This document shows positions 17,341 to 28,771 of a DNA stretch of 62,544 bases, piece after piece. The stretch is from contig JBEGTL010000001.1 of the NCBI GenBank assembly GCA_041179425.1, positions 1 through 62,544 on the forward strand. The letters run 5' to 3'. The translations under genes and the position numbers were made by a program. Origin of the DNA: Pseudomonadota bacterium (lineage in GTDB: Bacteria; Myxococcota_A; Polyangia; Polyangiales; DASUME01). The first letter of the stretch is position 1. Every line of letters starts with the position of its first letter. The notes below the pieces were generated by a model. It ran no database searches. It had not been told where the DNA came from and was given only the letters and a program-made list of their open reading frames with translations.

Positions 17341-17879
17341 TGTTGAGATCGTACGCGCTCTGTCTGACCCTCCTCGCGTCGGCTGCGTGCAGCAATCAGG
17401 CGCCCGATGCCGCGCCGGCCGCCGCCGTGCCCGCGCAGCTCGAGCCCGTCCCGGCAGGACATCCGCCGATCGTCGCGCTGCCCGATCCCGAGCTCGCCGG
17501 GGGGCACGTGGGGCGCGCTCCTCGCCGTCTCACCACTGCGCAGCTCAAGGCGAGCATCCGCGTCACCACCGGACGCGACTGGTCACAGATCGACAACCTG
17601 GCCGCCTCGCTGGGGCGCGCCGACTACGCGCTGGTCAACGCCGAGGCAACCGAGACCAACCTGGTGTTCGCCAAGTTCCTCGACGACGGAGCGCGCGAGG
17701 TGTGTCTCGCCGCGGCCGACGCCGACCTCAAACAGACCGACGTTACGCAAGGTGCTGGTCTTCCCGTACGACCTGCTCAGCGCGGGCGCCGAGCTCAACA
17801 AACCCATGGAGGCTCGCGCGGGCGCCAACAAGAGCGACACGCTGGGGGTCTCTGTGTTGGGCTACCTGGCAAACCGTAA
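17340..17879 (+). CDS. lipoprotein N-terminal module; the coding signal leaves this frame near 17745
   Basis: Lipobox LLASAAC, then RRLTTAQLKASIRVTTGRDW...FAKFLDDGAREVCLAAADADLKQTD. After about 17745 wobble GC collapses and the peptide becomes Arg/Gly/Gln junk. Confidence 0.5.
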   Translation: MLRSYALCLTLLASAACSNQAPDAAPAAAVPAQLEPVPAGHPPIVALPDPELAGGHVGRAPRRLTTAQLKASIRVTTGRDWSQIDNLAASLGRADYALVNAEATETNLVFAKFLDDGAREVCLAAADADLKQTDVTQGAGLPVRPAQRGRRAQQTHGGSRGRQQERHAGGLCVGLPGKP

Positions 17880-19482
17880 GGTCAGTGCGGACACACCGCG
17901 TGGTCTGCTCGCCTACGCAGGACGCGCCACCACGCGCTTTGGCGACTACACGGGCCGCCTCGACAGCTACCTGGGCAGCGGCGCCCTGTCGGCGCGCACG
18001 GCGAGCGCTGCAGAGATTCCGGCGCGGGTCGCTTCGGAGCAGCACGGTGCGGCCGTGCGACTCGGCGTGATCGACGGCACCGTGCGCGCATTGGTGGGTG
18101 TGCCCGGCTACGCTGGCGGCGGCGTCAACGGCGACGGCGTGGATCTGGGTGCAGGACGCGCGCTGCACTACCAGCTCGGTGCCGGAAACAACCCTCAGAT
18201 CGTCGCCCAAGGAGCAGACCGCCCGTACACCGACGGCCTTCAGGCGGCCTACGGGGGGCGCAACGTGGGTGTCGACGTTGCGTTCACGGACTTCGACGGC
18301 GACGGTCGCCAAGACTTGGTGGTGGCAGCGCCCCTGCTGTCGACACCGACCACGAGCAGCACCGACTACGCAAGCGTGAAGCCGGAGTGCGTGACGGCGT
18401 CTGCACAGACCAATGGCGGCGCGCTGATCTTCCTGGCTCGCGCCGACGGCACGTTCGTGAACGGATTTCGTGTGTTTGCGGCAAACGCCATCGCGGGTTG
18501 CACGCCTGCCGACAGCAATGCCTGCAAGCGCACCAACCTCGGTCGCGCCGGCATCGCCGGTGGATTCGACTTCGACGGCGACGGCAAACAAGACCTCCTG
18601 CTCACGCGCAACAATGGACTCGAGCTCTTTCTCGGTCGCGCGCCGGACGACCGCGCGTTGGCCAAGCCCACCATGGTCTGTGATCCCGCATTCTCTCTGC
18701 CCGCGCTGGCGCAGGGTGTCTCTGCACCGCAGGCGCTCGGCGATCTCGACGCCGACGGGTGCGCCGAGGTGTCGCTTCGCTACAGCGACGACCAGCGCGC
18801 GGGCCTCGTCGTGCTGTTCGGCTTTGCCGCGGACGGCACACGGTGCAAGGCGCACAAAGAGGCCGCGTGGCTGCGCATCTCGGGCGATGCGGAGACCGGC
18901 CTCGACAACATGAAGCTCGGCGTGGCCACGGTGCGCGCCGGCAAGCTCCTCGGCGATGCGCGTGACTTCGTGGCGGTGTCGGCGGCGCTGTACCCGTTCC
19001 GCGGTCAACCGCAGCCCACGGTGCTGTTGTTCGACGCTGCGGAGTGGGTACAAAAGCGGCCCCCCAAGGGTGAGCTGTTGCTGAGCGCGCTCCACGACGG
19101 TCTCACCCCCCTCGCGCTGACCTACCGCGAGCGGGCGGTCGAGCTCGGCCGCGGTCTGGCCGGCAACGTCGATCTCGACGGCGATGGGGCCGTCGACCTC
19201 GTCGTCGCGGCGCCCGGCGCATCCCTCAATGGAGACGGTGCCGGTGCGGTGTTCGTGTTCCGTGGCGGGGCGCCGCTGGTGGCGCAGCTCGCCGGCCAGA
19301 CCAGCGCCGCACTCGCCTCGCACATCACCGTGTTGGGAGATGGAGCCGAGCGCGCGAGCGTGGGGCAGAGCGTGAGTACGGTCGCACGCACCGCAAGCAG
19401 TCCTGCGGTGCTGGGCATCGGCGCACCCCTCAGCTACCGCACGGGCACGGCCAACGGAACCAGCTGGCTACTCGCCTTCTGA
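17752..19482 (+). CDS. FG-GAP/VCBS (integrin-alpha-like) repeat protein, probably the body of the lipoprotein at 17340
   Basis: Repeated FTDFDGDGRQDLVVAAP, GFDFDGDGKQDLLL, LGDLDADGCAEV and NVDLDGDGAVDLVVAAP. The frame is open from 17407 but coding-like only from about 17749. An in-frame GTG lies at 17752. Confidence 0.7.
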   Translation: MLVFPYDLLSAGAELNKPMEARAGANKSDTLGVSVLGYLANRKVSADTPRGLLAYAGRATTRFGDYTGRLDSYLGSGALSARTASAAEIPARVASEQHGAAVRLGVIDGTVRALVGVPGYAGGGVNGDGVDLGAGRALHYQLGAGNNPQIVAQGADRPYTDGLQAAYGGRNVGVDVAFTDFDGDGRQDLVVAAPLLSTPTTSSTDYASVKPECVTASAQTNGGALIFLARADGTFVNGFRVFAANAIAGCTPADSNACKRTNLGRAGIAGGFDFDGDGKQDLLLTRNNGLELFLGRAPDDRALAKPTMVCDPAFSLPALAQGVSAPQALGDLDADGCAEVSLRYSDDQRAGLVVLFGFAADGTRCKAHKEAAWLRISGDAETGLDNMKLGVATVRAGKLLGDARDFVAVSAALYPFRGQPQPTVLLFDAAEWVQKRPPKGELLLSALHDGLTPLALTYRERAVELGRGLAGNVDLDGDGAVDLVVAAPGASLNGDGAGAVFVFRGGAPLVAQLAGQTSAALASHITVLGDGAERASVGQSVSTVARTASSPAVLGIGAPLSYRTGTANGTSWLLAF

Positions 19483-19952: not shown

Positions 19953-21578
19953 GTGCACAGCGTGTCCCCGACCCTAGAGAGCCAGCGCAAGCTCGAAGAT
20001 CTGGAGCATCAGTTCCAGGCGCTCGTCGAGTGCTCCGCCGACGCCATCTTCATCACCGACTTCGACTCGGCGCGTTTTATCCGCGTCAACTCGCGTGCGG
20101 TCGAGTTGTTCGGGTACGAGGCAGACGAGCTCGCCGGCATGACAGGGCGTCAGCTGCACCCCAGTGAAGACAACGCCGTGGTCGACGACATCAGTCGCGA
20201 TCTGATTCGCGACGGGTCGGTCACGCGACACGCCGTGCGTCTACGTCGCAAAGACGACGGCGTGTTCTGGGCCGAGCTGCGCAGCAGCGCCTACGTCGCC
20301 GATGGGCGCAAGCTGTACGTCACGTTCGTGCGCGACATCTCCGGCAAGCTCGTGCGCGAGCTGGAGCTCAACCAGGCCTACCAGACACTCAAAGACACCG
20401 AGGCGCAGCTGATTCGTTCGTCGCGTTTGGCGGCGATAGGTCAGCTTGCAGCGGGTGTCGCGCACGAGGTCAACAACCCGGCCGCAAGTGCGTTGCTCAA
20501 CCTCGAGGTCCTCGAGCAAGAGGTGCACGCGCTGGCTGAAGACGCTGCCTACGCCGAAGCGCGCGACTGTCCGCAGGTGCTGTTCGACTCCGTGCGCCGC
20601 GTCACGCGCGAGGCCGAAGAAGCGGTGCGCGACTCGTCCGAGGCGCTGCGTCGGATCGCCTCGGTGGTCAAGGGGCTGCGCGGCTTCGTGCAGATCACCG
20701 ACAGCGAGGTGCGTCGCGTCAGCGTGGACGAGGCCATCGACGCGGCGCTGCGCCTCGTGCAAAACCAGGTCCGCCAGCGCGCGACGGTGCACTGCACGTT
20801 TGGCTCTTCGCGCGAGCTCGTCGCCGATCGCGGCAAGCTGATCCAGGTCTTCATCAACCTCTTGCTCAACGCGGCGCAGGCCATCGAGGGCGGTGGCGGC
20901 GGCAAGATCGAAGTGTTCACCATGGACTCCGCCGACGGCGTCTTGGTGCGCGTCATCGACGATGGCCCAGGCGTGCCTGCGCACGCTGCGCCGCACATCT
21001 TCGAGCCCTTCTTCACCACCAAAGAAGCAGAGCACGGCACGGGGCTCGGGCTGTCCCTGTGCGCCGACATCATCCATCGTCACCGCGGCAAGCTCGAGCT
21101 ACGGAGCAGCGAGCGCGGTGCGAGCTTCGAGATCTTTTTGCCCATCGACACGGGCCTCGAGCTGCCCCGGCCGAGCGAGCCAGCCACCGACATGGGGCGC
21201 GCGCGCATCTTGGTGGTCGACGACGACGAAGGTTTGGTGCGCGCCTACCGACGCTGGCTCGGTCGCAAACACGACGTCATCGTCGCGTACGACGGCGAAG
21301 AAGCGCTGCAGCTGCTCGAGCAAGATCAAGAGTTCGACGTCATCTTGTGCGACCTGATGATGCCGCGCTTTGACGGCGTGGCGCTGTACGAGGCCGTCAT
21401 CGCGCACAAGCCGCACCTGCTCTCGCGCATGGTCTTCTGTAGTGGTGGGCCCACGAGCCCTCGCTATCAAGACTTCGCCAAGCTGCCGAGCATCGTGTTC
21501 TTCGACAAGCCCATCCCGCACGACGGCTTCGAGCAGTGGGTGGCCGGCCGCATTCGCGAGCGCGAAAACCGCGTCTGA
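19953..21578 (+). CDS. PAS-sensor hybrid histidine kinase with C-terminal receiver domain
   Basis: PAS region (ADAIFITDFDSARFIRVN), H-box AAGVAHEVNNP, N-box LLLNAAQA, G1 DDGPGV and G2 GTGLGLS. The receiver reads ILVVDDDEG...VILCDLMMP...FFDKP. Confidence 0.9.
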   Translation: MHSVSPTLESQRKLEDLEHQFQALVECSADAIFITDFDSARFIRVNSRAVELFGYEADELAGMTGRQLHPSEDNAVVDDISRDLIRDGSVTRHAVRLRRKDDGVFWAELRSSAYVADGRKLYVTFVRDISGKLVRELELNQAYQTLKDTEAQLIRSSRLAAIGQLAAGVAHEVNNPAASALLNLEVLEQEVHALAEDAAYAEARDCPQVLFDSVRRVTREAEEAVRDSSEALRRIASVVKGLRGFVQITDSEVRRVSVDEAIDAALRLVQNQVRQRATVHCTFGSSRELVADRGKLIQVFINLLLNAAQAIEGGGGGKIEVFTMDSADGVLVRVIDDGPGVPAHAAPHIFEPFFTTKEAEHGTGLGLSLCADIIHRHRGKLELRSSERGASFEIFLPIDTGLELPRPSEPATDMGRARILVVDDDEGLVRAYRRWLGRKHDVIVAYDGEEALQLLEQDQEFDVILCDLMMPRFDGVALYEAVIAHKPHLLSRMVFCSGGPTSPRYQDFAKLPSIVFFDKPIPHDGFEQWVAGRIRERENRV

Positions 21579-21911
21579 GCCCCTCGTGCACTGACTCGCG
21601 CGCGCTCTCGAGCGGCCTGCGCGATCGGCTTTGCGATCTCGCGAGCAGGGTGCAAGAAAAATTGCCTGGCTAAACTGTCAGTGAATGATGGTTCGTCTCC
21701 ACGTCCGTCTGACTAGCCGACGTCATACGAGGGCGAACGTTTTGACCCATCGAGTGCATGACGAGAGGTCGCTTGCTGCGCCTTGCCGTTCTGCCCTCGC
21801 CAATCGATCGCGTGGACTCACTTTTGGGGGGGGTAGTAGAGCCCGGCACCTGTCCCTGGGTGCGAGCGTTTGCCACAATGGCCTACCCCCCAGCCACGGA
21901 GTCTGCTTCCG

Positions 21912-24900
21912 ATGGTCCACACTCGTGTAGAGGACTCGCTCAGCGCCGACGGCGCGGCGGTCACGGCGAAGCTCCGTCACGATGAAGAGCACAGGCGATT
22001 CCTCAGCGTGCCGCGCGCGGCGGCAGAGCTTGCGTTGCGCCGGCTCGAGCGCAACAACCTGCGCGCAGGCCACGAAAACGCGGGTTTTCTCTCGGCGGGT
22101 CGCGGCTATCTGCCCGCCACCAATCCGCTCACGCGGCTCGACCCTCGGTACGCCGCATGGGACGAGCTGGCGGCGGAGCTGCCCGCGCTCTACCGGTCGC
22201 TCAAGCTGCGCAAACGGGTCGAACAACTTCCCATCTTGGAAGCGTCTGCAGACTGCCTCGAAGCTCGCTACGCGATGCGTGCGTGCTCGCTGCTCGCGAT
22301 CGTGTCGCACGCGTACTGGTACGTGGACAGTCGCCCGCCGCGCGGCGCGCTGCCCGAGGCGCTGCGTCGTCCCTGGGCGCAGCTGCGTAAGCGCCTGGGG
22401 CGCACCCAAGAAGTCATCAACTACATCGATCTGATCGTCTACAACTGGAAGCTGCGCGACCCGACCCTGCAGAACCCGCTGGTGGTCGAGAACCTCGAGC
22501 TGTTGTTCCCCACGGTGGGCAACCAAGAAGAGCGCGTCTTTTACATGACGCAGCTGGAGATCCTCGCGCGCACCAGCCCCGTGGTGCGTCAGGTGGCCGC
22601 AGCGCAAGGCGCCGTGCTGCGCCAGGACGACGCGGCGCTCGAGATTGCGCTGCTCGACATCATCGACTGCCTCGGGCGCGTGGTGGCCACCTCGCTCCCC
22701 AAGATCAACCCCAACCCGTACGCGGACAACCACGTCGACCCGGTGGTGTGGGCCAAGACCGTTGCACCCTTCGCGGTGCCCATCCACGCGGGCGATCAAG
22801 GGCCGAGCGGCACCTCGTCGCCGCTCTTCAACACACTCGACCTGTTCTTCGGGCGCAAGGACTACGCGTCGTTTCTCGGCCGCGAGATCAAGCAGCTGCG
22901 CGCGCACTATCCACGGTCGTGGCAGGTGTACCTGTCGTCGCTGACCGAGCTCTCGGTGGCCAGCTACATCGAAGAGCGAGGCAGTCGCACCCTCCGCAGT
23001 GCGTTTCGGGAGGCCTTCGAGCTGTACGCCGGAGAGAGCGGCTTTCTCGGTCGTCATCGTATGAAGGTGTACGGCTACCTGGAGCTGGCCTTCAAGGTCG
23101 GCCGCTCGGTCACCATCGGTGGCTTTGGTGGCGTGTTCACCGATCGCACCTGGGACCTGGTCGATCGCGAGCTCGCAGCCTCCCAAAACGAGCGACTGCG
23201 CTCGTTGCCGCACTTCGTGCAGTGCGCGCGTGTGGTTGCCTCCAAAGAGTCCGACGCGGGCTCGGGCATTCGTCGCATCACGCTCGACGTCGAGAAGGCA
23301 GGGGTCCGCTATCGCCCCGGGGACCGCTGCCTGATCCTGCCCGAAAACGAACCCGCGCTGATCGAGCAGACCCTCAGGTCGCTGGGCCTTGCCGGCGAGC
23401 AGCCGATCGCGCTGACGCCCGAGTGGAAGGCGTACGCCAAAGACCGCCTCGAGCTCGACGGCAAGACCCAGATCTGCGCGCGCGAGCTGCTGCGCTACGG
23501 GGCCATCCGCCCGGTGTCACCGCGCCTGGCAGAGGCCCTGCACGCGCGCACGCAGTCGGAGTTCTTGTTCGATGCCATCGGCCGCGGCTCGACCGAGCGC
23601 TGGGAGCTGTGGGAGCTGCTCGACCTGTTGTCTGCACGCGGCCTCGCGCCGACGACGCTGTGGCAAGGCACCGACACGAATGGCGAACAGCCCAGTGAGC
23701 TGCTGAGCCGGCTGATCCCGCCGCAGCGCTTTCGTGTGTACTCCGTGTCGTCCGCGCCCAAGAGCCCGCTGCGGCGAGGGGAAGACACCATCGAGCTGAC
23801 GGTGGGGCAGCTCGCGTACGAAGCCAAGCCGTCCGAGCTCGACGCGGTGCGCGCGCGTGCGGACGCCGACACGGCACCCACGGTGCTGCGACGCGGGACC
23901 GGGTCGAGCTTCCTCGCGCGTGCCGAGCGGCTGGGTAGCGCGGTGGTCTTTCGGATCCAGCACCCCGACGTGTTCAGGTTGCCCGAGGACCCGGAGACGC
24001 CGATCGTCATGTTTGCCGGCGGCTCGGGCATCGCGCCCTTTCGCGCCTTTTTGCAAGAGCGGGCGCGCAACGCGCGACGCACGCGAGCCTGCCTGTTCGT
24101 GTCGGTTCGTGCGCCCGAAGACTTTTTGTACGGTGACGAGCTGGAGCGCGCGGTCGGCTCGGGCACGCTTTCGCTGACCGTTGCCTTCACGCGCAAGGGG
24201 GGGGCGCTCGTGCGAGACCGAGCCGGCCGGCTCGAGGTCCGACCTGCGGAGCCCCAGCGGCTAGAAGACCTGATGTTGGCGCCCGCCACCGCAGCCGAGC
24301 TGTGGCAGCTCGCCAAGACCAAGGCCGAGGGGGGCAGCGGCGCGGTGTTCTACGTCTGCGGTCGCAGCGGCTTTGCCGACACCGTGCTGGCCACGCTCAA
24401 GCGCATCTTTCGTGACCAGCTGGCGAGCGTGCCCGGTGCCGACCTGGCCACTGCGACCGAGCGGGCTGCGCAGCGCGTGTACCAGATGGTCGGTGATCGC
24501 AGGCTCTTGTCCGAGGTGCACACCGACGCGCGGCCGCTCGACGAGCAGCCACGCCTGTTCGACGTGTCCGAGATCGCTCGGCACAACGACGCCCAGCACG
24601 GCTACTGGATCGTGGTCGACCGCGTGGTCTACGACCTGACCGAGTTCATCGAGCTTCACCCCGGCGGCCGGCGCGTGGTGCAGGCGTACGCGGGCATGGA
24701 CGCGAGCCACGGCTTTGCGCGCGCACACCACGGGCGGGCCGATGTCGACGCGATGCGTGAGAGCTACCGCATCGGCATGGTGCGCACGCTCCGCTTCGAC
24801 GATCTCGTGGTGCGCGTCCTGGCCCCGAGCGGCGCGGTCCCGGTCGACGCCGCCGTCGCCTACCGCACGTTCGTCAAGGCGCTGACCCTGGTCGTGGAGA

Positions 24901-25901
24901 TGCAGAACGCGCTGGTCGCCGACCAGTCGCTACAGGCGCGGCCCGAGGCCGACGGCAGCCCGGGCCTTGGACCGCGCAGCGAGCGCAGCGCCTACCGCCT
25001 GCAGCGCGCCCTGGAGACGCACCGTCGATTTCTCAAGAACTACTTCGCCGTCATGCTGGACAGCACGCTGCCCGAGCTGTGGACGCTCTCCTCCGGTCTG
25101 TTCTTTCCGGACGAGCCGAGAGACGCCATGTCGACCTACCTGACGACCCTGCGCGCGACGGAGCCAGCCGTGCGCACCGAGGCGCTCGCGCAGCACGCGT
25201 TCGACCAGTTCGAGAGCTGGCACGAAGCGGGGGGACTGCACAGTCTGGTCGAGTCCTTCGAGGCGGCCGACGTCTGGTTCTTGCACGCGCTCAAGGCCGC
25301 ACTCGTGGCGGCGGTGCGCGAGTTCGAGCGGCACGGCCCGCGCGTGCGCACGCGTGGCGCCGCGCGGGTGCGCCGGACATGTCAGCGCATGGCGGGCATC
25401 GTTCGTCAGTACTACGCAAGGTCCACGCGCGAGGCGCAGCGTGTGGTCCGCATCCATCCGCTCACGAGCAGAGAGAGCGAGCAACGCAGCAGCCAGCCCC
25501 CACCCGTCAACACGCGGCTGCACACGGGCACGCACTGGATCTTCGAAGAAGACGGAGCGCAGAAGCTGGCCGTGTTGCGGCGCACGCCGGTCGTAGCCGG
25601 CTCGCTGCTGGCGCTGTCGGACGAGAACGAGAACGTGCTGCGCTGCCTCTTGCCGCGGCATCGCGAGTTTGGTCTGGTCGTGGACATGCGACAGGCGCGT
25701 ATGCGCAACGACAGTGGTTTCGAAGACGCCATGGCGCGCTTGCGCCGCGAGCTGACCACACACTTTCAGCGCGCGGCAGTCTTGCTCGAGAGCACCATCG
25801 GCGAGCTGCAGGTGAGCCGCATCGAGCGCGACGAGCGGCGCGACGCCATCGCCACGCGCAGCGAGAGCACGGCGTTCAAGTTTGCCCGCGGCGGCGCCTG
25901 A
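21912..25901 (+). CDS. multidomain redox protein: IDO-like heme dioxygenase + CysJ/CPR-type FAD/NADPH reductase + cytochrome b5 + unassigned C-terminal region
   Basis: One open frame of 1329 aa from ATG 21912 (a TTG at 21870 is also possible). IDO motifs are VYNWKLRDP, GPSGTSSPLFNTLDLFFG and GRHRMKVYGY. Reductase motifs are RFRVYSVSS, PIVMFAGGSGIAPFRAF and FYVCGRSG. The b5 motif is YDLTEFIELHPGG. Confidence 0.85.
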   Translation: MVHTRVEDSLSADGAAVTAKLRHDEEHRRFLSVPRAAAELALRRLERNNLRAGHENAGFLSAGRGYLPATNPLTRLDPRYAAWDELAAELPALYRSLKLRKRVEQLPILEASADCLEARYAMRACSLLAIVSHAYWYVDSRPPRGALPEALRRPWAQLRKRLGRTQEVINYIDLIVYNWKLRDPTLQNPLVVENLELLFPTVGNQEERVFYMTQLEILARTSPVVRQVAAAQGAVLRQDDAALEIALLDIIDCLGRVVATSLPKINPNPYADNHVDPVVWAKTVAPFAVPIHAGDQGPSGTSSPLFNTLDLFFGRKDYASFLGREIKQLRAHYPRSWQVYLSSLTELSVASYIEERGSRTLRSAFREAFELYAGESGFLGRHRMKVYGYLELAFKVGRSVTIGGFGGVFTDRTWDLVDRELAASQNERLRSLPHFVQCARVVASKESDAGSGIRRITLDVEKAGVRYRPGDRCLILPENEPALIEQTLRSLGLAGEQPIALTPEWKAYAKDRLELDGKTQICARELLRYGAIRPVSPRLAEALHARTQSEFLFDAIGRGSTERWELWELLDLLSARGLAPTTLWQGTDTNGEQPSELLSRLIPPQRFRVYSVSSAPKSPLRRGEDTIELTVGQLAYEAKPSELDAVRARADADTAPTVLRRGTGSSFLARAERLGSAVVFRIQHPDVFRLPEDPETPIVMFAGGSGIAPFRAFLQERARNARRTRACLFVSVRAPEDFLYGDELERAVGSGTLSLTVAFTRKGGALVRDRAGRLEVRPAEPQRLEDLMLAPATAAELWQLAKTKAEGGSGAVFYVCGRSGFADTVLATLKRIFRDQLASVPGADLATATERAAQRVYQMVGDRRLLSEVHTDARPLDEQPRLFDVSEIARHNDAQHGYWIVVDRVVYDLTEFIELHPGGRRVVQAYAGMDASHGFARAHHGRADVDAMRESYRIGMVRTLRFDDLVVRVLAPSGAVPVDAAVAYRTFVKALTLVVEMQNALVADQSLQARPEADGSPGLGPRSERSAYRLQRALETHRRFLKNYFAVMLDSTLPELWTLSSGLFFPDEPRDAMSTYLTTLRATEPAVRTEALAQHAFDQFESWHEAGGLHSLVESFEAADVWFLHALKAALVAAVREFERHGPRVRTRGAARVRRTCQRMAGIVRQYYARSTREAQRVVRIHPLTSRESEQRSSQPPPVNTRLHTGTHWIFEEDGAQKLAVLRRTPVVAGSLLALSDENENVLRCLLPRHREFGLVVDMRQARMRNDSGFEDAMARLRRELTTHFQRAAVLLESTIGELQVSRIERDERRDAIATRSESTAFKFARGGA

Positions 25902-25904
25902 GCC

Positions 25905-26504
25905 TCACACCCACGAACAACGAAACACGCAGCGTTGCTCGTACTGCACGCTGGGTAGCACACGAACTTTGACGTTTTTGCCGGCGCCCAGCTTGATGGC
26001 CGACGCGAGGACGCCGCAAAAAGCGGTGCGAAAGTAGCCAAACTGGGCGAGCGGCAGCAGACACGCCACGGCGCGTGCCTCGTTGGGTCCGGTGCGTGTG
26101 AGGCTCACGCCGCCGCCCGTCATCAGGCGATCCCACAGGCGCTGAAACTGCGCGAGCGGCACCCAAGGTGTCAGGCCAAGGACGCGTGCACGGCGCACGA
26201 TCATCGCCACGAACGTGCCCTGGATGTACTCCCCCACGCCCTCCCCAATCTCGAGCAGCTCGTCGTGTCCGAGACCGAGCGCGTCGCACGCGGTGTAGTG
26301 CGCGAGCGCGAGATCCATGTCGAGCCACTCGGCCGCGATGGTCTCGAGGATGCGCGCGCGGTACGCCGGCGCGACCAGGGTCAGGTAGCGGTCGTAGTGA
26401 CCATGCTTGCGGATGCTCTCCAGCGAAGACTGGATCAGCGTACTGCGCACAGCCGTCACCGGACGCAGGACTTCGGGAAGTGCGATCAGAACCTCGACGC
26501 TCAC
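25905..26504 (-). CDS. hypothetical protein, possibly of the myxococcal DUF2378 (TIGR02265) paralogous family
   Basis: 199-aa ORF with GTG start, clean coding composition and very G/C-rich wobble. The family assignment is from memory only. Confidence 0.6.
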   Translation of the reverse strand: MSVEVLIALPEVLRPVTAVRSTLIQSSLESIRKHGHYDRYLTLVAPAYRARILETIAAEWLDMDLALAHYTACDALGLGHDELLEIGEGVGEYIQGTFVAMIVRRARVLGLTPWVPLAQFQRLWDRLMTGGGVSLTRTGPNEARAVACLLPLAQFGYFRTAFCGVLASAIKLGAGKNVKVRVLPSVQYEQRCVFRCSWV

Positions 26505-26586: not shown

Positions 26587-28395
26587 TTACCCTCGTACTG
26601 CACGGATGATCGTCTGTGCCTGAGGGTCGGTGATGCCCAGTTTTCGCCACCCCTCGGCCTCTTCGTGCGTGGGCTCCGGATGTCCACGCGTCGACACGCG
26701 AGCAAAGACATCGGACAGCATGGCGACACGTACAGGGCGCGACTCGGCGTGCTTTTCGTCGTGATGAAGCGCGCACGCCTGGACGATGTCCGAGTGCAAG
26801 TTCCACTTCTCGGCTAGCTGCGCTCCGGCGTGCGCGTGGTAACGCTCGACCAACTCGGCGATCACCTGCAGACCGGCCGTGGGCACGGGAAGGCCGGCCA
26901 AGATGCGCAGCACACGCGCTTCGCCAAGGTTGTGCAACAGACCGCAAAGGTAAGCCGGCTCGTAGTTCCAGCGCATCTCCTGACAGACTGCGAGCGCGCA
27001 GCGGGCAGCGAGCTGGGCGAGCTCGGAGTGGCGATCGAGCAGCTCGTTGTACTTGGGTAGGGCTACCGAGTGGGCGATGTTGGCGAGGATCTCGCGGCCC
27101 TGACCAATGCCCATACGCATCAGCGCGTCGCGCGTGGAGGCGATGCGAAAGCCGCGGTAATACGCGGGTGAGTTTGCCACCGCGAGGAAGCGCGCCGCCG
27201 TGTACGGGTCTTTCTCGAGCAGCCGTGCCAGCTTGGTGAGGTTGACGTTGGGGCTGTTGGCCATGCGCAGCGCGGCCATGGCGACCGCCGGGATGACGGG
27301 CAGCGCCGACGTCCCTTCGTTGAGCTGCTTGACGAGCTCGGCCTCGAGCGCCGTCGCATCGCCGCGGTCGGGCCGCTTGTGCGTGCCGGTGAGCGTGCTG
27401 CGTGAGATGGCGTGCGCGATGGTGGCGGACTTCTCGTCCTCGAAGCTGCGGCGGATCGGCGTGGCCATGACCACGCGGTTGCGACCTCTGTGTTTGGCTT
27501 GGTACAGCGCGCTGTCCGCGCGCTTGAGCAACGCAGTCAGCGAGCTGTCGGGCACGGCCGGGTTGAACACCGCCACGCCGATGCTCGCCGTCACGCGCTC
27601 CGGGTGGTTCTCTTTGGGGAAGGGGATGTTCTCGATCCACTCGCGATGACGCTCGGCGATCTTCGGCGCAAAGTCGTTGTCGCAGCCGGACAGACAGACC
27701 ACGAACTCTTCGCCGCCGTAGCGACCCGCGATGTCGTTGCTACGAATGGTCTTGCGCAGGTGCCCGCCCAGGGCGCGCAGCACGTTGTCGCCCACGTCGT
27801 GCCCGTACTTGTCGTTGATCGACTTGAAGTGATCGAGGTCGACGAACATCACCGCGAAGGGCGCGTTGAGGTTGAGCTGCGACAGCAGCGCCTCTTCGAG
27901 TGCGCCGCGATTGAGGACCTGCGTGAGCGGGTCGACCGTGGCCTTGACGCGCAGCTTGTCCCGCTCCGAGCGCAGGGTGCGCAGCGAGTCGCGGTTGCGC
28001 CGATTGCGCAGCTGCACGGCAAAGCGGGCCTGCAGCTCACCGGCGCCGATGGATGCGCGCACCACGTCGTCGGCGCCCGCCAGGAGGCCGCGCTCGATGG
28101 CGTCTTCCTGACTGTCCGCTGCGATCAGCAGCACGGGCAGCTCGTGCGCCGGGTCCACCAAGCGTAGGTCGGCGCACACCTCGAAGCCCCAGGTCTCGCC
28201 GTCGCCGACGAGCAACAGCAACAGGTCCGGGGCGTGTTGTTCGAGGGTCAACGAGACGTTGGCCGGCCACTGCGCGAACAGGGCCACACAGCCCACGCGC
28301 TCCGCGACCTGCTGGAGCACCGCGATGGCGTCACCATCCGTGCCCACGATCAGGATCCGCGCCGGCTCGTCTTTCGCTTGCTCCAACTCCACCAT
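26587..28395 (-). CDS. receiver-like domain / GGDEF diguanylate cyclase / HDOD domain protein
   Basis: ATG at 28395 (MVELEQAKDEPARILIVG). GGDEF core with I-site reads RSNDIAGRYGGEEF. The C-terminal HDOD-like region reads LPVIPAVAMAALRMANSP...GLLHNLGEARVL. The acidic pocket of the receiver looks atypical. Confidence 0.85.
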   Translation of the reverse strand: MVELEQAKDEPARILIVGTDGDAIAVLQQVAERVGCVALFAQWPANVSLTLEQHAPDLLLLLVGDGETWGFEVCADLRLVDPAHELPVLLIAADSQEDAIERGLLAGADDVVRASIGAGELQARFAVQLRNRRNRDSLRTLRSERDKLRVKATVDPLTQVLNRGALEEALLSQLNLNAPFAVMFVDLDHFKSINDKYGHDVGDNVLRALGGHLRKTIRSNDIAGRYGGEEFVVCLSGCDNDFAPKIAERHREWIENIPFPKENHPERVTASIGVAVFNPAVPDSSLTALLKRADSALYQAKHRGRNRVVMATPIRRSFEDEKSATIAHAISRSTLTGTHKRPDRGDATALEAELVKQLNEGTSALPVIPAVAMAALRMANSPNVNLTKLARLLEKDPYTAARFLAVANSPAYYRGFRIASTRDALMRMGIGQGREILANIAHSVALPKYNELLDRHSELAQLAARCALAVCQEMRWNYEPAYLCGLLHNLGEARVLRILAGLPVPTAGLQVIAELVERYHAHAGAQLAEKWNLHSDIVQACALHHDEKHAESRPVRVAMLSDVFARVSTRGHPEPTHEEAEGWRKLGITDPQAQTIIRAVRG

Positions 28396-28771
28396 GCCCG
28401 AGCCGTCGACGTGCGCGTGCACCGCAAACGACCGCGTGCGTGCGAGCGAAAAGTCGAGCGCCGCCGACGACCTCCGTTCGATCTTATCGACGGAGCGCGG
28501 TGTCTCGCAAGCGTGCCCACGGGACGACGCGAAGGCGCTGCCCACACTGAATGCGTCGCCCCACGATCAGCGCGGCGTGGGGCCTTTTGGCGAGTCCCCG
28601 TCCGGCGCTGCCATCGCGCCACGCACGGTTCATTGGGCGGGCTCCGCACCGGCGCCGACGACGCGCACAGCGCGCGCCAAGATCGCGGCACAAAACACGT
28701 CGCCCCATGCGCTCGCGCACGCTCTTCGTGTTCGCGCCGAGGCTGGCGCAGACGATGCAACCACCCGCGTC

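Follow-up and report, generated by a model that had tools for sequence, protein, structure and literature searches.

The human haem oxygenases IDO1 and IDO2 are the described enzymes whose haem domain belongs to the same family as that of the bacterial protein presented here. In these enzymes the haem domain, cytochrome b5 and the b5 reductase are separate, and b5 with its reductase was reportedly proposed by Maghzal in 2008 and by Vottero in 2006 as the cellular reductant of human and yeast-expressed IDO. Direct transfer of electrons from FAD to b5 in a single chain is established for nitrate reductase and Ncb5or, and direct flavin-to-b5 transfer within one polypeptide is found throughout the class formed by Ncb5or, assimilatory nitrate reductase and flavocytochrome b2, with flavin modules of b5-reductase type (FMN in b2). 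P450-BM3 (CYP102A1) and its relatives likewise hold a haem oxygenase and an NADPH reductase in one chain; in BM3 the P450 haem has a Cys ligand, and the final donor is an FMN domain. Flavohaemoglobin (Hmp) also fuses a His-ligated, O2-binding haem, here of the globin fold, to an FNR-superfamily NAD(P)H/FAD reductase, and as NO dioxygenase has its haem re-reduced by one electron per cycle (PMC3820574). The haem-globin RsbR of the O2-sensing stressosome of Vibrio, in turn, joins an O2-binding haem domain to a STAS domain and signals by partner switching (PMC4976288, PMC9237108). Finally, MarE and, in its monooxygenase side-activity, IDO are members of the superfamily of haem-dependent aromatic oxygenases whose monooxygenation is diverted or driven by a reductant (PMC12312684, PMC11904535, PMC12921851).

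The protein described here has a covalently fused donor chain, and its predicted terminal acceptor is an IDO-type haem. It differs from IDO1 and IDO2 in being bacterial, in carrying two extra C-terminal domains and in its signalling context, which is not that of the kynurenine pathway. Its FAD/NADPH module is homologous to that of P450-BM3, but the haem is His-ligated and of the IDO type, the order of the domains is different, FMN is absent, and b5, placed after the NADPH domain, would be the last donor. Flavohaemoglobin lacks the b5 intermediary and the helical and STAS modules, and has a globin where an IDO fold stands here. Unlike the FAD-b5 fusion proteins, the present protein has a CysJ/CPR-type flavin module that includes a connecting domain. 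RsbR is a globin sensor without a reductase. MarE, which is TDO-like, draws on free ascorbate, and no fused reductase is described for it.

The stretch of DNA analysed (the window) is 62,544 nucleotides long and contains the following features:

21912..25901, + strand: whole gene of a five-module flavo-haemoprotein of 1329 aa, with an ATG start supported by homologues
22044..23216, + strand: IDO-family haem domain (about residues 45-435; Pfam, PDB profile, hhalign)
23244..24527, + strand: CysJ/CPR-type FAD-binding, connecting and NADPH-binding module without an FMN domain (about residues 445-872)
24555..24785, + strand: cytochrome b5 domain (about residues 882-958) with His916 and His939 as haem ligands
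24795..25466, + strand: predicted beta-hairpin and long helical bundle (about residues 962-1185; AF2)
25503..25898, + strand: STAS/SpoIIAA-like alpha/beta domain (about residues 1198-1329; Foldseek)
19953..21578, + strand: upstream PAS / histidine-kinase / receiver hybrid (Pfam)
26587..28545, - strand: downstream receiver / GGDEF / HDOD protein (Pfam)

The reading frame is unbroken on the + strand from an in-frame alternative TTG start at 21870, or from the ATG at 21912 (1329 aa plus stop), through 25901. The closest homologues, P0001 and P0002 (85% and 83% identical), share its MV.NRVEDSL start, in support of the ATG. The GC content by codon position (0.705/0.484/0.865) is normal for coding DNA of a high-GC genome, and GC3 is uniform along the frame. 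A sequence-only reading had described a single uninterrupted frame of 1329 aa with three redox domains. The frame is confirmed at 21912-25901 (+), all ten peptides quoted in that reading were located, with matching coordinates wherever it gave them, and the three domains are indeed present, while about 370 C-terminal residues (~960-1329), comprising two further domains, had been overlooked. The stretch GFLGRHRMKVYGY lies at 23040-23078, with the codon of His382 at 23055-23057, RFRVYSVSS is found at 23727, and HPGG at 24657-24668.

The haem domain matches the Pfam IDO family PF01231 (E 1.1e-31, residues 62-265). When the family profile was compared with the PDB, IDO1 (E 2.8e-32) and IDO2 (E 7e-32) were the sole haem-oxygenase matches, with TDO, PrnB and MarE absent. 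Alignment to IDO1 by hhalign (probability 99.4%, 366 columns, 25% identity) places His382 opposite His346, the proximal ligand, as had been suggested from the sequence by eye, and this residue is kept in 64/64 sequences of a conservation set covering roughly eight phyla. Among the pocket equivalents are Y171 (IDO1 Y126), F210/Y211 (F163/F164) and S299-G300 (S263-A264). Several IDO1 pocket positions are kept, together with the G-S-A motif and a JK-loop motif containing T401 and G404, which favours a genuine substrate pocket over a domain in decay. In IDO1, F226, F227 and R231 are required for Trp turnover. This tryptophan-clamping segment has no alignable counterpart, either by hhalign to IDO1 or in the comparison of the family profile with the PDB; a conserved Pro-rich stretch without Arg, DPVVWAKTVAPFAVP, takes its place, so that the substrate is probably held otherwise than L-Trp in IDO1. 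In addition, a conserved Gln (59/64) stands at the position of IDO1 S167.

The reductase module is recognised by the CysJ-type models of NCBIfam (E 2e-30 to 1e-27, residues 430-833), by Pfam NAD_binding_1 PF00175 (E 5.8e-9, residues 700-823), and by PDB matches to CysJ (1ddg, E 1.7e-24), the FAD domain of P450-BM3 (4dqk, E 1.2e-19) and 8dme (E 5e-18). The full set of catalytic motifs is present and conserved in the family: R608-x-Y610-S611, G704-x-G706-x-x-P709, T760-R761, C816-G817 and E868-V-H870. In the 64 sequences, the S/T760-R761 site for the NADPH 2'-phosphate is kept in 55 and C816-G817 in all, while position 868 holds E or D and the FAD-stacking position 870 holds F, H or Y. No flavodoxin/FMN match was found in Pfam, NCBIfam or the PDB. 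The b5 domain matches Pfam PF00173 (E 3.2e-17, residues 886-957) and PDB b5 1jex (E 8.5e-13), to which both of its His residues align, and also the b5 of sulfite oxidase, cytochrome b2 and CYB5R4 (3lf5). Its haem ligands are His916 in HPGG (24657-24659) and His939 (24726-24728), which pairs with the second haem ligand of microsomal b5, each kept in 63/64. The earlier assignments of a CysJ/CPR-type module without FMN and of a cytochrome b5 thus stand, and PF01231, PF00173 and PF00175, among the Pfam families it had named, are significant, whereas FAD_binding_1 PF00667 (E 7.6e-6) falls under its curated cut-off.

In a homologue search, 444 proteins reached E<=1e-5. According to precomputed Pfam lists, 119 of the 120 best combine IDO, NAD-binding and b5 families, the sole exception (P0015) having FAD_binding_1 instead of NAD_binding_1. 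The fusion is present in at least 109 species from roughly eight phyla, including the complete genomes of the cultured strains Sandaracinus amylolyticus (CP011125), Oligoflexus tunisiensis Shr3, Chitinophaga solisilvae O9 and Aquimarina agarilytica ZC1. Among 147 family representatives (a 50% identity set), 85 show IDO, FNR and b5, and 28 have a shorter form with IDO and b5 but no FNR. This makes b5 the constant partner and the pair of haems the conserved unit, to which the flavin module is added, a pattern to be expected were b5 the direct donor. Literature searches found no published description or experimental study of the fusion or its family. The novelty once claimed for it holds to that extent, but not as rarity or uniqueness, since the family is widespread and automatically annotated.

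The AF2 model of the helical domain (pLDDT 91.3, pTM 0.88) finds no close counterpart in the PDB by Foldseek (best E 0.087, TM <= 0.41), nor is there any sequence match in Pfam, NCBIfam or the PDB. As modelled, the bundle is a novel domain, outside known sequence families and solved folds. The conserved polar residues E996, M997, N999, D1004, E1035, H1037, R1039, K1128 and E1139 recur in it across phyla. For the last domain, Foldseek retrieves 4qtp_D (TM 0.64, probability 1.00), 2q3l, 1th8_B and SiaC (7e6g/6kko), a fold shared by SpoIIAA and RsbV-type proteins. The Pfam STAS_2 match is weak (2/16 members). This domain has an invariant R-N-D..F-E motif and is confined, within the family, to a Myxococcota/Oligoflexia branch; in contrast to RsbR, the phosphorylatable Ser/Thr of partner switching is not conserved.

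About 16 Polyangiales-type loci have the same PAS-HK-RR gene immediately upstream, and one homologue, P0030, carries the PAS domain of this gene at its N-terminus (56% identity, 117 aa, E 5e-35). A GGDEF protein also lies downstream in L001 and in the Sandaracinus locus L002. Elsewhere, a class III cyclase is fused to the C-terminus (L044) or encoded directly downstream (L015, L051, L058, L079), 10 loci have a fused FHA domain, and 22 have a CBS-pair protein upstream. Conserved neighbours in Bacteroidota are a DsbA-like thioredoxin-fold protein and an HxlR-type regulator. Across 84 loci, the conserved neighbour clusters contain no kynurenine pathway, neither kynurenine formamidase nor kynureninase. 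The former label of self-sufficient IDO fits the family of the domain, but Trp oxidation is not supported, given this context and the unaligned F226/F227/R231 segment.

From the domain identities, cofactor ligands and motifs, conservation, distribution and gene context established here, we read the gene product, with a probability of about 0.5, as an IDO-family haem oxygenase that reduces itself and forms part of a signalling circuit, and infer the direction of electron flow, the oxygenase activity, the class of substrate and the nature of the signalling link as follows. NADPH would reduce the FAD of the CysJ/CPR-type module, the FAD would pass single electrons to the bis-His haem of b5, and b5 would reduce the His382-ligated haem, which would bind O2 and oxidise an indole-type or other aromatic substrate. 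The same route had been proposed before; all its domains are present and the forms with b5 but no reductase fit its order, the direction itself staying conditional. The permanently attached reductase suggests that electrons are often needed, possibly at every turnover, as in monooxygenase-type chemistry, rather than only to rescue occasional auto-oxidation. In the superfamily, reductant-dependent monooxygenation is reported for MarE, and monooxygenation is a side reaction of human IDO (PMC12312684 and PMC12921851, respectively). A true dioxygenase has no stoichiometric need for electrons, so the fused reductase would fit NO dioxygenation or the reduction of a sensor haem equally well.

The main rival of the oxygenase reading, unlikely but still the best of the alternatives, is a haem-based gas or redox sensor, in which the IDO-fold haem would merely bind O2, NO or CO, or report the NADPH/O2 balance. 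The reductase chain would then hold the haem ferrous, and the signal would pass from the helical bundle through the STAS domain to the PAS kinase, the GGDEF protein or a cyclase. The recurring PAS, FHA, CBS and cyclase partners speak for it, as does the STAS-like fold, whose structural matches include SiaC, the activator of the cyclase SiaD; fused signalling parts, including the L044 cyclase, are what a sensor input module would be expected to carry, and count against the oxygenase. Precedents are the O2-sensing haem-globin RsbR with its STAS domain (PMC4976288, PMC9237108), cytochrome b5 reductase 3, which keeps the sensor haem of guanylate cyclase reduced (reference list of PMC10988061), and the IDO-fold Turbo myoglobin, a plain O2 binder (PMC3820574). 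However, most members (~1075-1170 aa, e.g., in Bacteroidota, Poribacteria and Sericytochromatia) lack a recognised fused signalling domain, although the helical domain may still be an output; the conserved pocket residues would be superfluous for a pure gas sensor; and FHA, PAS, CBS and STAS could equally be regulatory inputs of an enzyme. To our knowledge, moreover, no haem sensor has a two-cofactor NADPH reductase chain, which we count against this rival.

Somewhat less probable again is the earlier reading in its strict form, canonical tryptophan 2,3-dioxygenation, from L-Trp to N-formylkynurenine, with a reductase that merely re-activates auto-oxidised ferric haem. The placement of the domain in the IDO branch, with IDO1 and IDO2 as the only haem-oxygenase matches, the proximal His and the many pocket residues kept favour it, and b5 is the proposed reductant of IDO in cells. 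The low identity to IDO1, the Arg-free Pro-rich replacement, the Gln at S167 and the lack of kynurenine genes among the conserved neighbours all weigh against it.

A detoxifying or radical-handling enzyme, in which oxy-ferrous haem would react with NO or other reactive species and be re-reduced by one electron per cycle, is improbable. The Bacteroidota neighbours would suit it, as regulators of the HxlR type often have to do with oxidative or electrophile stress; flavohaemoglobin is laid out in the same way, a His-ligated, O2-binding haem and an FNR-type reductase sharing a single chain, and one electron per turnover would account for the permanent fusion. Cytochrome b5 supports the NO dioxygenase activity of cytoglobin, but the IDO-like Turbo myoglobin is no high-fidelity NO dioxygenase (PMC3820574). 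Moreover, NO needs no conserved aromatic pocket, and neither an NO-responsive regulator nor a gene for denitrification was seen among the conserved neighbours. A chimeric assembly or read-through uniting separate genes has a negligible chance: frame errors do occur in the family (L085 is split into overlapping ORFs of 1184 and 381 aa), but the conservation of the fused form, also in complete genomes of cultured strains, refutes it, and the uniform GC3 opposes it.

The family nearly always adjoins, or is fused to, signalling proteins, in forms that differ by phylum. This link had been overlooked in the earlier reading, which is incomplete in that respect, and because of it a role as sensor or signal generator has to be taken seriously beside that of a plain metabolic enzyme. 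For the oxygenase itself, the helical bundle, the STAS-like tail, the upstream PAS-kinase gene and the downstream GGDEF gene would couple it to signalling, either by controlling the enzyme or by reading its redox or ligand state, or its product.

The gene lies on the + strand in a single unbroken ORF, which extends from either a TTG at 21870 or an ATG at 21912 to the stop codon at 25899-25901. The ATG is the likely start, giving a product of 1329 aa, because the two closest homologues begin at the residue that matches it (MV.NRVEDSL). The GC content of its three codon positions (0.705/0.484/0.865) follows the usual coding signature, in a genome of about 67% GC. A sequence-only reading had described here one uninterrupted frame of 1329 aa joining an IDO-like dioxygenase, an FAD/NADPH reductase and a cytochrome b5 domain. 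The frame is indeed unsplit in the window, every peptide quoted in that reading was found, with agreeing coordinates wherever it gave them, and profile searches matched all three domains; its domain list overlooked about 370 residues at the C terminus. The FAD_binding_1 match falls below the cut-off of that model, and the flavin module is additionally backed by CysJ-type models.

Pfam matches of the window protein
IDO (PF01231): E 1.1e-31
Cyt-b5 (PF00173): E 3.2e-17
NAD_binding_1: E 5.8e-9
FAD_binding_1: E 7.6e-6, under the curated cut-off of the model

The CysJ-type NCBIfam models match residues 430-833 with E-values of 2e-30 to 1e-27, and the PDB search retrieved the FAD/NADP domain structure of Escherichia coli CysJ (E 1.7e-24), the FAD domain of P450-BM3 (E 1.2e-19) and CPR (E about 1e-12 to 1e-14). 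No flavodoxin/FMN domain was detected in Pfam, NCBIfam or PDB searches of the protein, as the sequence-only reading had stated. Since the CysJ models are matched only from position 174-248 onwards and no FMN match was found, the module is of the FNR type and not a diflavin reductase, of which it represents the FNR half only. It carries the diflavin-reductase motifs R608/Y610/S611, G704/G706/P709, T760-R761, C816-G817 and E868 with H870 (F/H/Y across the family), the last pair corresponding to the ..DVW end of CPR. The b5 domain aligns with microsomal b5 (1jex, E 8.5e-13), with His916 (in HPGG) and His939 opposite both axial histidines, and by this alignment it is canonical.

Conservation of these positions was followed in an alignment of 64 sequences from Myxococcota, Bdellovibrionota, Chloroflexota, Acidobacteriota, Poribacteria, Actinomycetota, Bacteroidota, Sericytochromatia and Proteobacteria. 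The cofactor residues are largely conserved, and all three redox modules therefore look functional.

Conservation of cofactor residues in the 64-sequence alignment
His382, proximal ligand of the IDO-type haem: 64/64
His916 and His939, b5 ligands: 63/64 each
R608 (RxYS): 60/64, K in 4
Y610 (RxYS): 64/64
S611 (RxYS): 62/64, T in 2
G704 and G706 (G-x-G-x-x-P): 64/64
P709 (G-x-G-x-x-P): 62/64
R761 after S/T760, NADPH 2'-phosphate site: 55/64
C816-G817: 64/64
E/D868 and F/H/Y870: 63/64 each

The assignment of the haem domain to the IDO family is secure as far as profile comparison goes. A family profile covering residues 40-440 aligns with human IDO1 over 366 columns at 25% identity (hhalign probability 99.4%), and places His382 (GFLGRH382RMKV, codon 23055-23057) opposite the proximal ligand His346, as had been expected for this histidine. 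The IDO1 reference used in this alignment contains the aligned stretch of chain 7e0o_A as a substring and shows the landmarks Y126, F163/F164, S167, F226/F227, R231 and H346 at their expected indices. Searched against the PDB, a 28-sequence cross-phylum profile matched IDO1 (E 2.8e-32) and IDO2 (E 7e-32), without any further haem-oxygenase family (TDO, PrnB or MarE) among its matches.

Several positions of the distal pocket are retained. IDO1 Y126 corresponds to Y171, F163/F164 to F210/Y211, and S263-A264 to S299-G300 in the hhalign alignment, all of them conserved among the 64 sequences, while S167 is replaced by a conserved Gln214 (59/64) and G262 by Pro298. T401 and G404 fall in a conserved JK-loop motif (TIGGFGG, against GTGGT in IDO1); the pairing of T401 with IDO1 T379 is by motif position, the hhalign trace placing the motif one residue off. 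In IDO1, F226, F227 and R231 are needed for tryptophan turnover, with R231 acting as the carboxylate clamp. No counterpart of this segment was found in the family: hhalign leaves a 13-residue gap, and HMMER divides the IDO1 match into two stretches, omitting IDO1 221-260. The query stretch at the recognition segment, YADNHVDPVVWAKTVAPFAVP, contains no Arg, and the F226/F227/R231 stretch is replaced by an invariant Pro-rich DPVVWAKTVAPFAVP, likewise devoid of Arg. Thus, of the proposed IDO-like dioxygenase, the family and the proximal ligand stand and the tryptophan-recognition segment of IDO1 does not; a tryptophan dioxygenase label is not justified for this protein.

A lead on the substrate comes from 20 loci, including those of Sandaracinus amylolyticus (L002) and Oligoflexus tunisiensis (L017), in which a GGACT/AIG2 gamma-glutamyl-cyclotransferase-like domain is fused N-terminally to the IDO domain. 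Enzymes of the gamma-glutamyl-cyclotransferase type free amines. Together with the absent carboxylate clamp, this fusion hints at an amine, rather than an amino acid, as the candidate substrate, which should be taken as a lead only. In these GGACT-fused forms a further stretch of about 150 residues, unmatched by any family, also precedes the IDO domain.

A protein search with the window protein gave 444 matches at E<=1e-5. Among the best 120 of these, all but P0015 list IDO, NAD_binding_1 and Cyt-b5 in precomputed Pfam annotation, P0015 having FAD_binding_1 instead of NAD_binding_1. The source databases give the family members no names other than "cytochrome b5 domain-containing protein" or "sulfite reductase flavoprotein". 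When one genome per GTDB species was scanned, the fusion turned up in at least 109 species, and its cultured carriers include Oligoflexus tunisiensis Shr3, Chitinophaga solisilvae O9, Aquimarina agarilytica ZC1 and Xanthovirga aplysinae, as well as S. amylolyticus; the Aquimarina and Chitinophaga orthologues are shorter, at about 1080 aa. An artefact is extremely unlikely for so widespread a fusion. Exhaustive HMMER searching with the IDO domain yielded 1351 cluster representatives at E<=1e-3, of which 282 reached E<=1e-30. Architectures were counted for 147 of 150 representatives among the matches listed, using domain HMMs built for this analysis and a Pfam check.

Architectures among the 147 representatives listed
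IDO, FNR and b5, the helical domain coming next in nearly all: 85/147
IDO and b5 (and helical domain) without flavin module: 28/147
IDO only, or IDO and FNR (in part fragments): 34/147

Judged by domain content, the IDO haem, the b5 haem and the helical domain make up the constant unit, to which the reductase is added. Among the comparative results, this constancy most strongly supports b5 as the putative direct electron donor of the IDO haem. In one locus (L085:107-4799) the family gene is split near the b5/helical boundary into ORFs of 1184 and 381 aa overlapping by 8 nt, either by a frameshift error or as a genuine split form.

The residues that follow the b5 domain (about 960-1329) have no sequence family match in Pfam, NCBIfam or the PDB beyond a weak STAS_2. 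Searches limited to the C-terminal 375 aa gave nothing under E 0.2 in the PDB (profile search) and nothing in NCBIfam, and Pfam returned weak STAS_2 and noise; the STAS_2 match occurs in just 2 of 16 members, at E 0.026. In an AlphaFold2 model of residues 955-1329 (mean pLDDT 83.5), a beta-hairpin and a long helical bundle are followed by an alpha/beta domain at the C terminus. In this model the last 125 or so residues appear to adopt a STAS/SpoIIAA-like fold, with Foldseek target-normalised TM scores of 0.62-0.64 and probabilities of 0.99-1.00. The matches with these scores are the anti-sigma antagonist 4qtp (TM 0.64, probability 1.00), the DUF3478 protein 2q3l, SpoIIAA (1th8_B) and 2ka5, all with weak E-values (0.17-0.3) owing to the 375-aa length of the query model; SiaC, which activates the diguanylate cyclase SiaD, is a further match. 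This domain, confined to the Myxococcota/Oligoflexia branch of the family, has the invariant motif VVD.R.A..RND..FE.AM. The phosphorylatable Ser/Thr of partner-switching STAS proteins is not conserved in it, the position following the invariant R-N-D being S, P, A, K or T.

The helical domain comes after b5 in nearly all family members, reductase-less ones included. Modelled alone (24795-25466, residues about 962-1185), it folds with a pLDDT of 91.3 and a pTM of 0.88, and Foldseek found no credible structural relative in the PDB (best E 0.087, TM <= 0.41). Borrelia surface proteins, talin and designed bundles were rejected as relatives, none exceeding TM 0.41. Several polar residues are kept across phyla (E996, N999, D1004, E1035, R1039 and E1139, with H1037 in 51/64), which suggests a functional site or a domain interface. 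A third haem ligated by Met997 and His1037, as in cytochrome b562, was considered and dropped, since His1037 is Gln in 12/64. Word-indexed searches, run with the C-terminal region and the helical alignment as queries, gave 6 and 4 matches, all of them fragments of the same family; P0274 is encoded by the second part of a family gene that is split. As this type of search overlooked known full-length relatives, its few matches do not confine the helical/STAS module to the family.

The window gene is flanked by genes for signalling proteins.

Neighbours of the window gene
19953-21578, + strand: PAS / histidine-kinase / receiver hybrid, preceding the gene (Pfam)
25905-26504, - strand: 199-aa ORF between the gene and the GGDEF gene, coding-like (GC3 0.80)
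26587-28545, - strand: receiver-GGDEF-HDOD protein, downstream beyond the 199-aa ORF (Pfam)

The 199-aa ORF matches nothing in Pfam or NCBIfam, and in the other loci no homologue of it adjoins the family gene. Upstream of the kinase lies a large FG-GAP repeat protein (17407-19482, + strand), with a similar one upstream in the syntenic locus L001. Promoter and terminator scans of both flanks of the gene found nothing.

A counterpart of the window kinase is found directly upstream in about 16 Polyangiales-type loci, down to relatives of 50% identity. In two homologues (P0030 and P0031) a PAS domain is fused N-terminally to the family protein itself, and that of P0030 shares 56% identity over 117 aa (E 5e-35) with its counterpart in the window kinase, a Rosetta-stone link between the kinase sensor domain and the IDO fusion. 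In Oligoflexia, a kinase of about 900 aa is encoded divergently upstream. A kinase lies within 1 kb of 14 of the 23 STAS-bearing genes, compared with 1 of the 36 lacking STAS, in loci with enough flank, a difference that is partly phylogenetic. One Oligoflexales protein (L044:7155-12536) carries a C-terminal extension of about 400 aa that has a class III adenylate/guanylate cyclase domain at its end, and in four other loci (L015, L051, L058 and L079) a homologue of this extension is encoded by a gene of its own that follows the family gene after 0-128 nt. Some 200 aa preceding the cyclase domain have no family match.

Other branches show further partners. In 22 loci from Chloroflexota, Sericytochromatia, Vicinamibacterales and others, the gene immediately upstream, on the same strand, codes for a small CBS-pair protein and often overlaps the family gene or lies a few bases from it (e.g. 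L041:7392-7847 and L055:7438-7950). An FHA domain, of the phospho-threonine-binding type, is fused N-terminally in 10 loci (L025, L027, L030, L036, L037, L038, L040, L045, L046 and L078) from Chloroflexota and a few other phyla. In Bacteroidota (Aquimarina, Chitinophaga, Flavobacterium and Xanthovirga), a DsbA-like thioredoxin-fold protein is directly upstream and an HxlR-type regulator nearby (e.g. L077:6916-7644 and L064:6056-6406), which hints at a redox or electrophile-stress setting. Overall, the gene context of the family points to signalling.

The reading preferred here, given about even odds, is that of a self-reducing IDO-family oxygenase of an indole-type substrate tied to signalling. 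NADPH would reduce the FAD, which would feed electrons by way of the b5 haem into the IDO haem; the latter would use O2 to oxidise the substrate, and the helical/STAS tail and the neighbouring genes would couple the enzyme to two-component and c-di-GMP signalling. For the electron chain of the sequence-only reading, the domains and ligands are in place; the order of transfer, like the activity and the signalling link, is a prediction from sequence. The permanent reductase suggests a frequent or stoichiometric demand for electrons, which would fit monooxygenase-type chemistry. Such reductant-linked monooxygenation is documented for MarE (PMC12312684), and as a side path of human IDO (PMC12921851).

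An unlikely reading, though one with precedents, is that of a haem sensor keeping itself reduced. The O2 sensor RsbR joins a haem-globin to STAS (PMC4976288 and PMC9237108), a b5 reductase maintains the haem of guanylate cyclase (from the reference list of PMC10988061), and IDO-fold myoglobins show that the fold can serve as a plain O2 binder (PMC3820574). It is rather improbable that the protein is a canonical tryptophan dioxygenase whose reductase serves for reactivation only: it shares profile and proximal ligand with the IDO family, but the feature for tryptophan recognition is missing, and no kynurenine formamidase or kynureninase was found as a conserved neighbour among 84 loci. A NO dioxygenase resembling flavohaemoglobin can be given very little credence. 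Flavohaemoglobins work alike, but the protein has no globin and is not a member of that class, and an IDO-like myoglobin lacks such activity (PMC3820574).

A broader and still tentative proposal, somewhat improbable in either of its versions, is that the IDO-fold haem, its own reductase chain and the helical domain form the input or signal-generating module of a new bacterial signalling system. In the first version, a self-reduced haem would sense O2, NO or redox state, and the STAS/helical tail would talk to kinases, cyclases and c-di-GMP enzymes. In the second, the enzyme would turn an indole-type compound into a ligand sensed by the partner PAS kinase. Haem oxygenase similarly provides the chromophore of bacteriophytochrome kinases.

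In its general layout, the protein is a haem oxygenase fused to redox partners, as is already known from other systems. Self-sufficient P450s of the CYP102 type work alike and have a homologous FAD/NADPH part, but they combine a Cys-ligated P450 haem with an FMN reductase. The earlier likening to P450-BM3 thus applies to the functional layout and not to class membership, the protein having neither P450 nor FMN match. The unusual extras are the structurally novel, conserved helical domain and the systematic tie to signalling modules. Full-text literature searches brought up no account of IDO fused to b5 or to a reductase, and databases give automatic names only, in agreement with the earlier statement that no characterised enzyme with this architecture was known. 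A preprint on cytochrome P422 was discarded as a description of the family, its subject being DUF6875, whose fold is unrelated.

For decades there has been debate over how cells keep the haem of IDO-type enzymes ferrous. Cytochrome b5 is a proposed reductant of IDO, although PMC10988061, consulted on this point, contains no such statement. The widespread natural fusion of IDO to b5, in most cases together with an NADPH/FAD reductase, provides independent evidence from evolution for b5 as the cognate donor, and would offer a convenient single-chain, NADPH-only system for IDO chemistry. The altered recognition segment, like the permanent reductase, is suggestive of chemistry beyond tryptophan dioxygenation, possibly that of a monooxygenase acting on an indoleamine-like substrate; such an enzyme would widen the superfamily of haem-dependent aromatic oxygenases and could be of use as a biocatalyst. 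The helical domain, with about 200 residues confidently folded and no match among solved structures, is an unexplored domain. The cultured carriers S. amylolyticus, O. tunisiensis, C. solisilvae and A. agarilytica make these questions directly testable. To our knowledge, the IDO fold has so far been known only from metabolism, immunity and mollusc myoglobins; its recurrent coupling to kinase, cyclase, GGDEF, FHA, CBS and STAS modules suggests a role for this fold in bacterial signalling.
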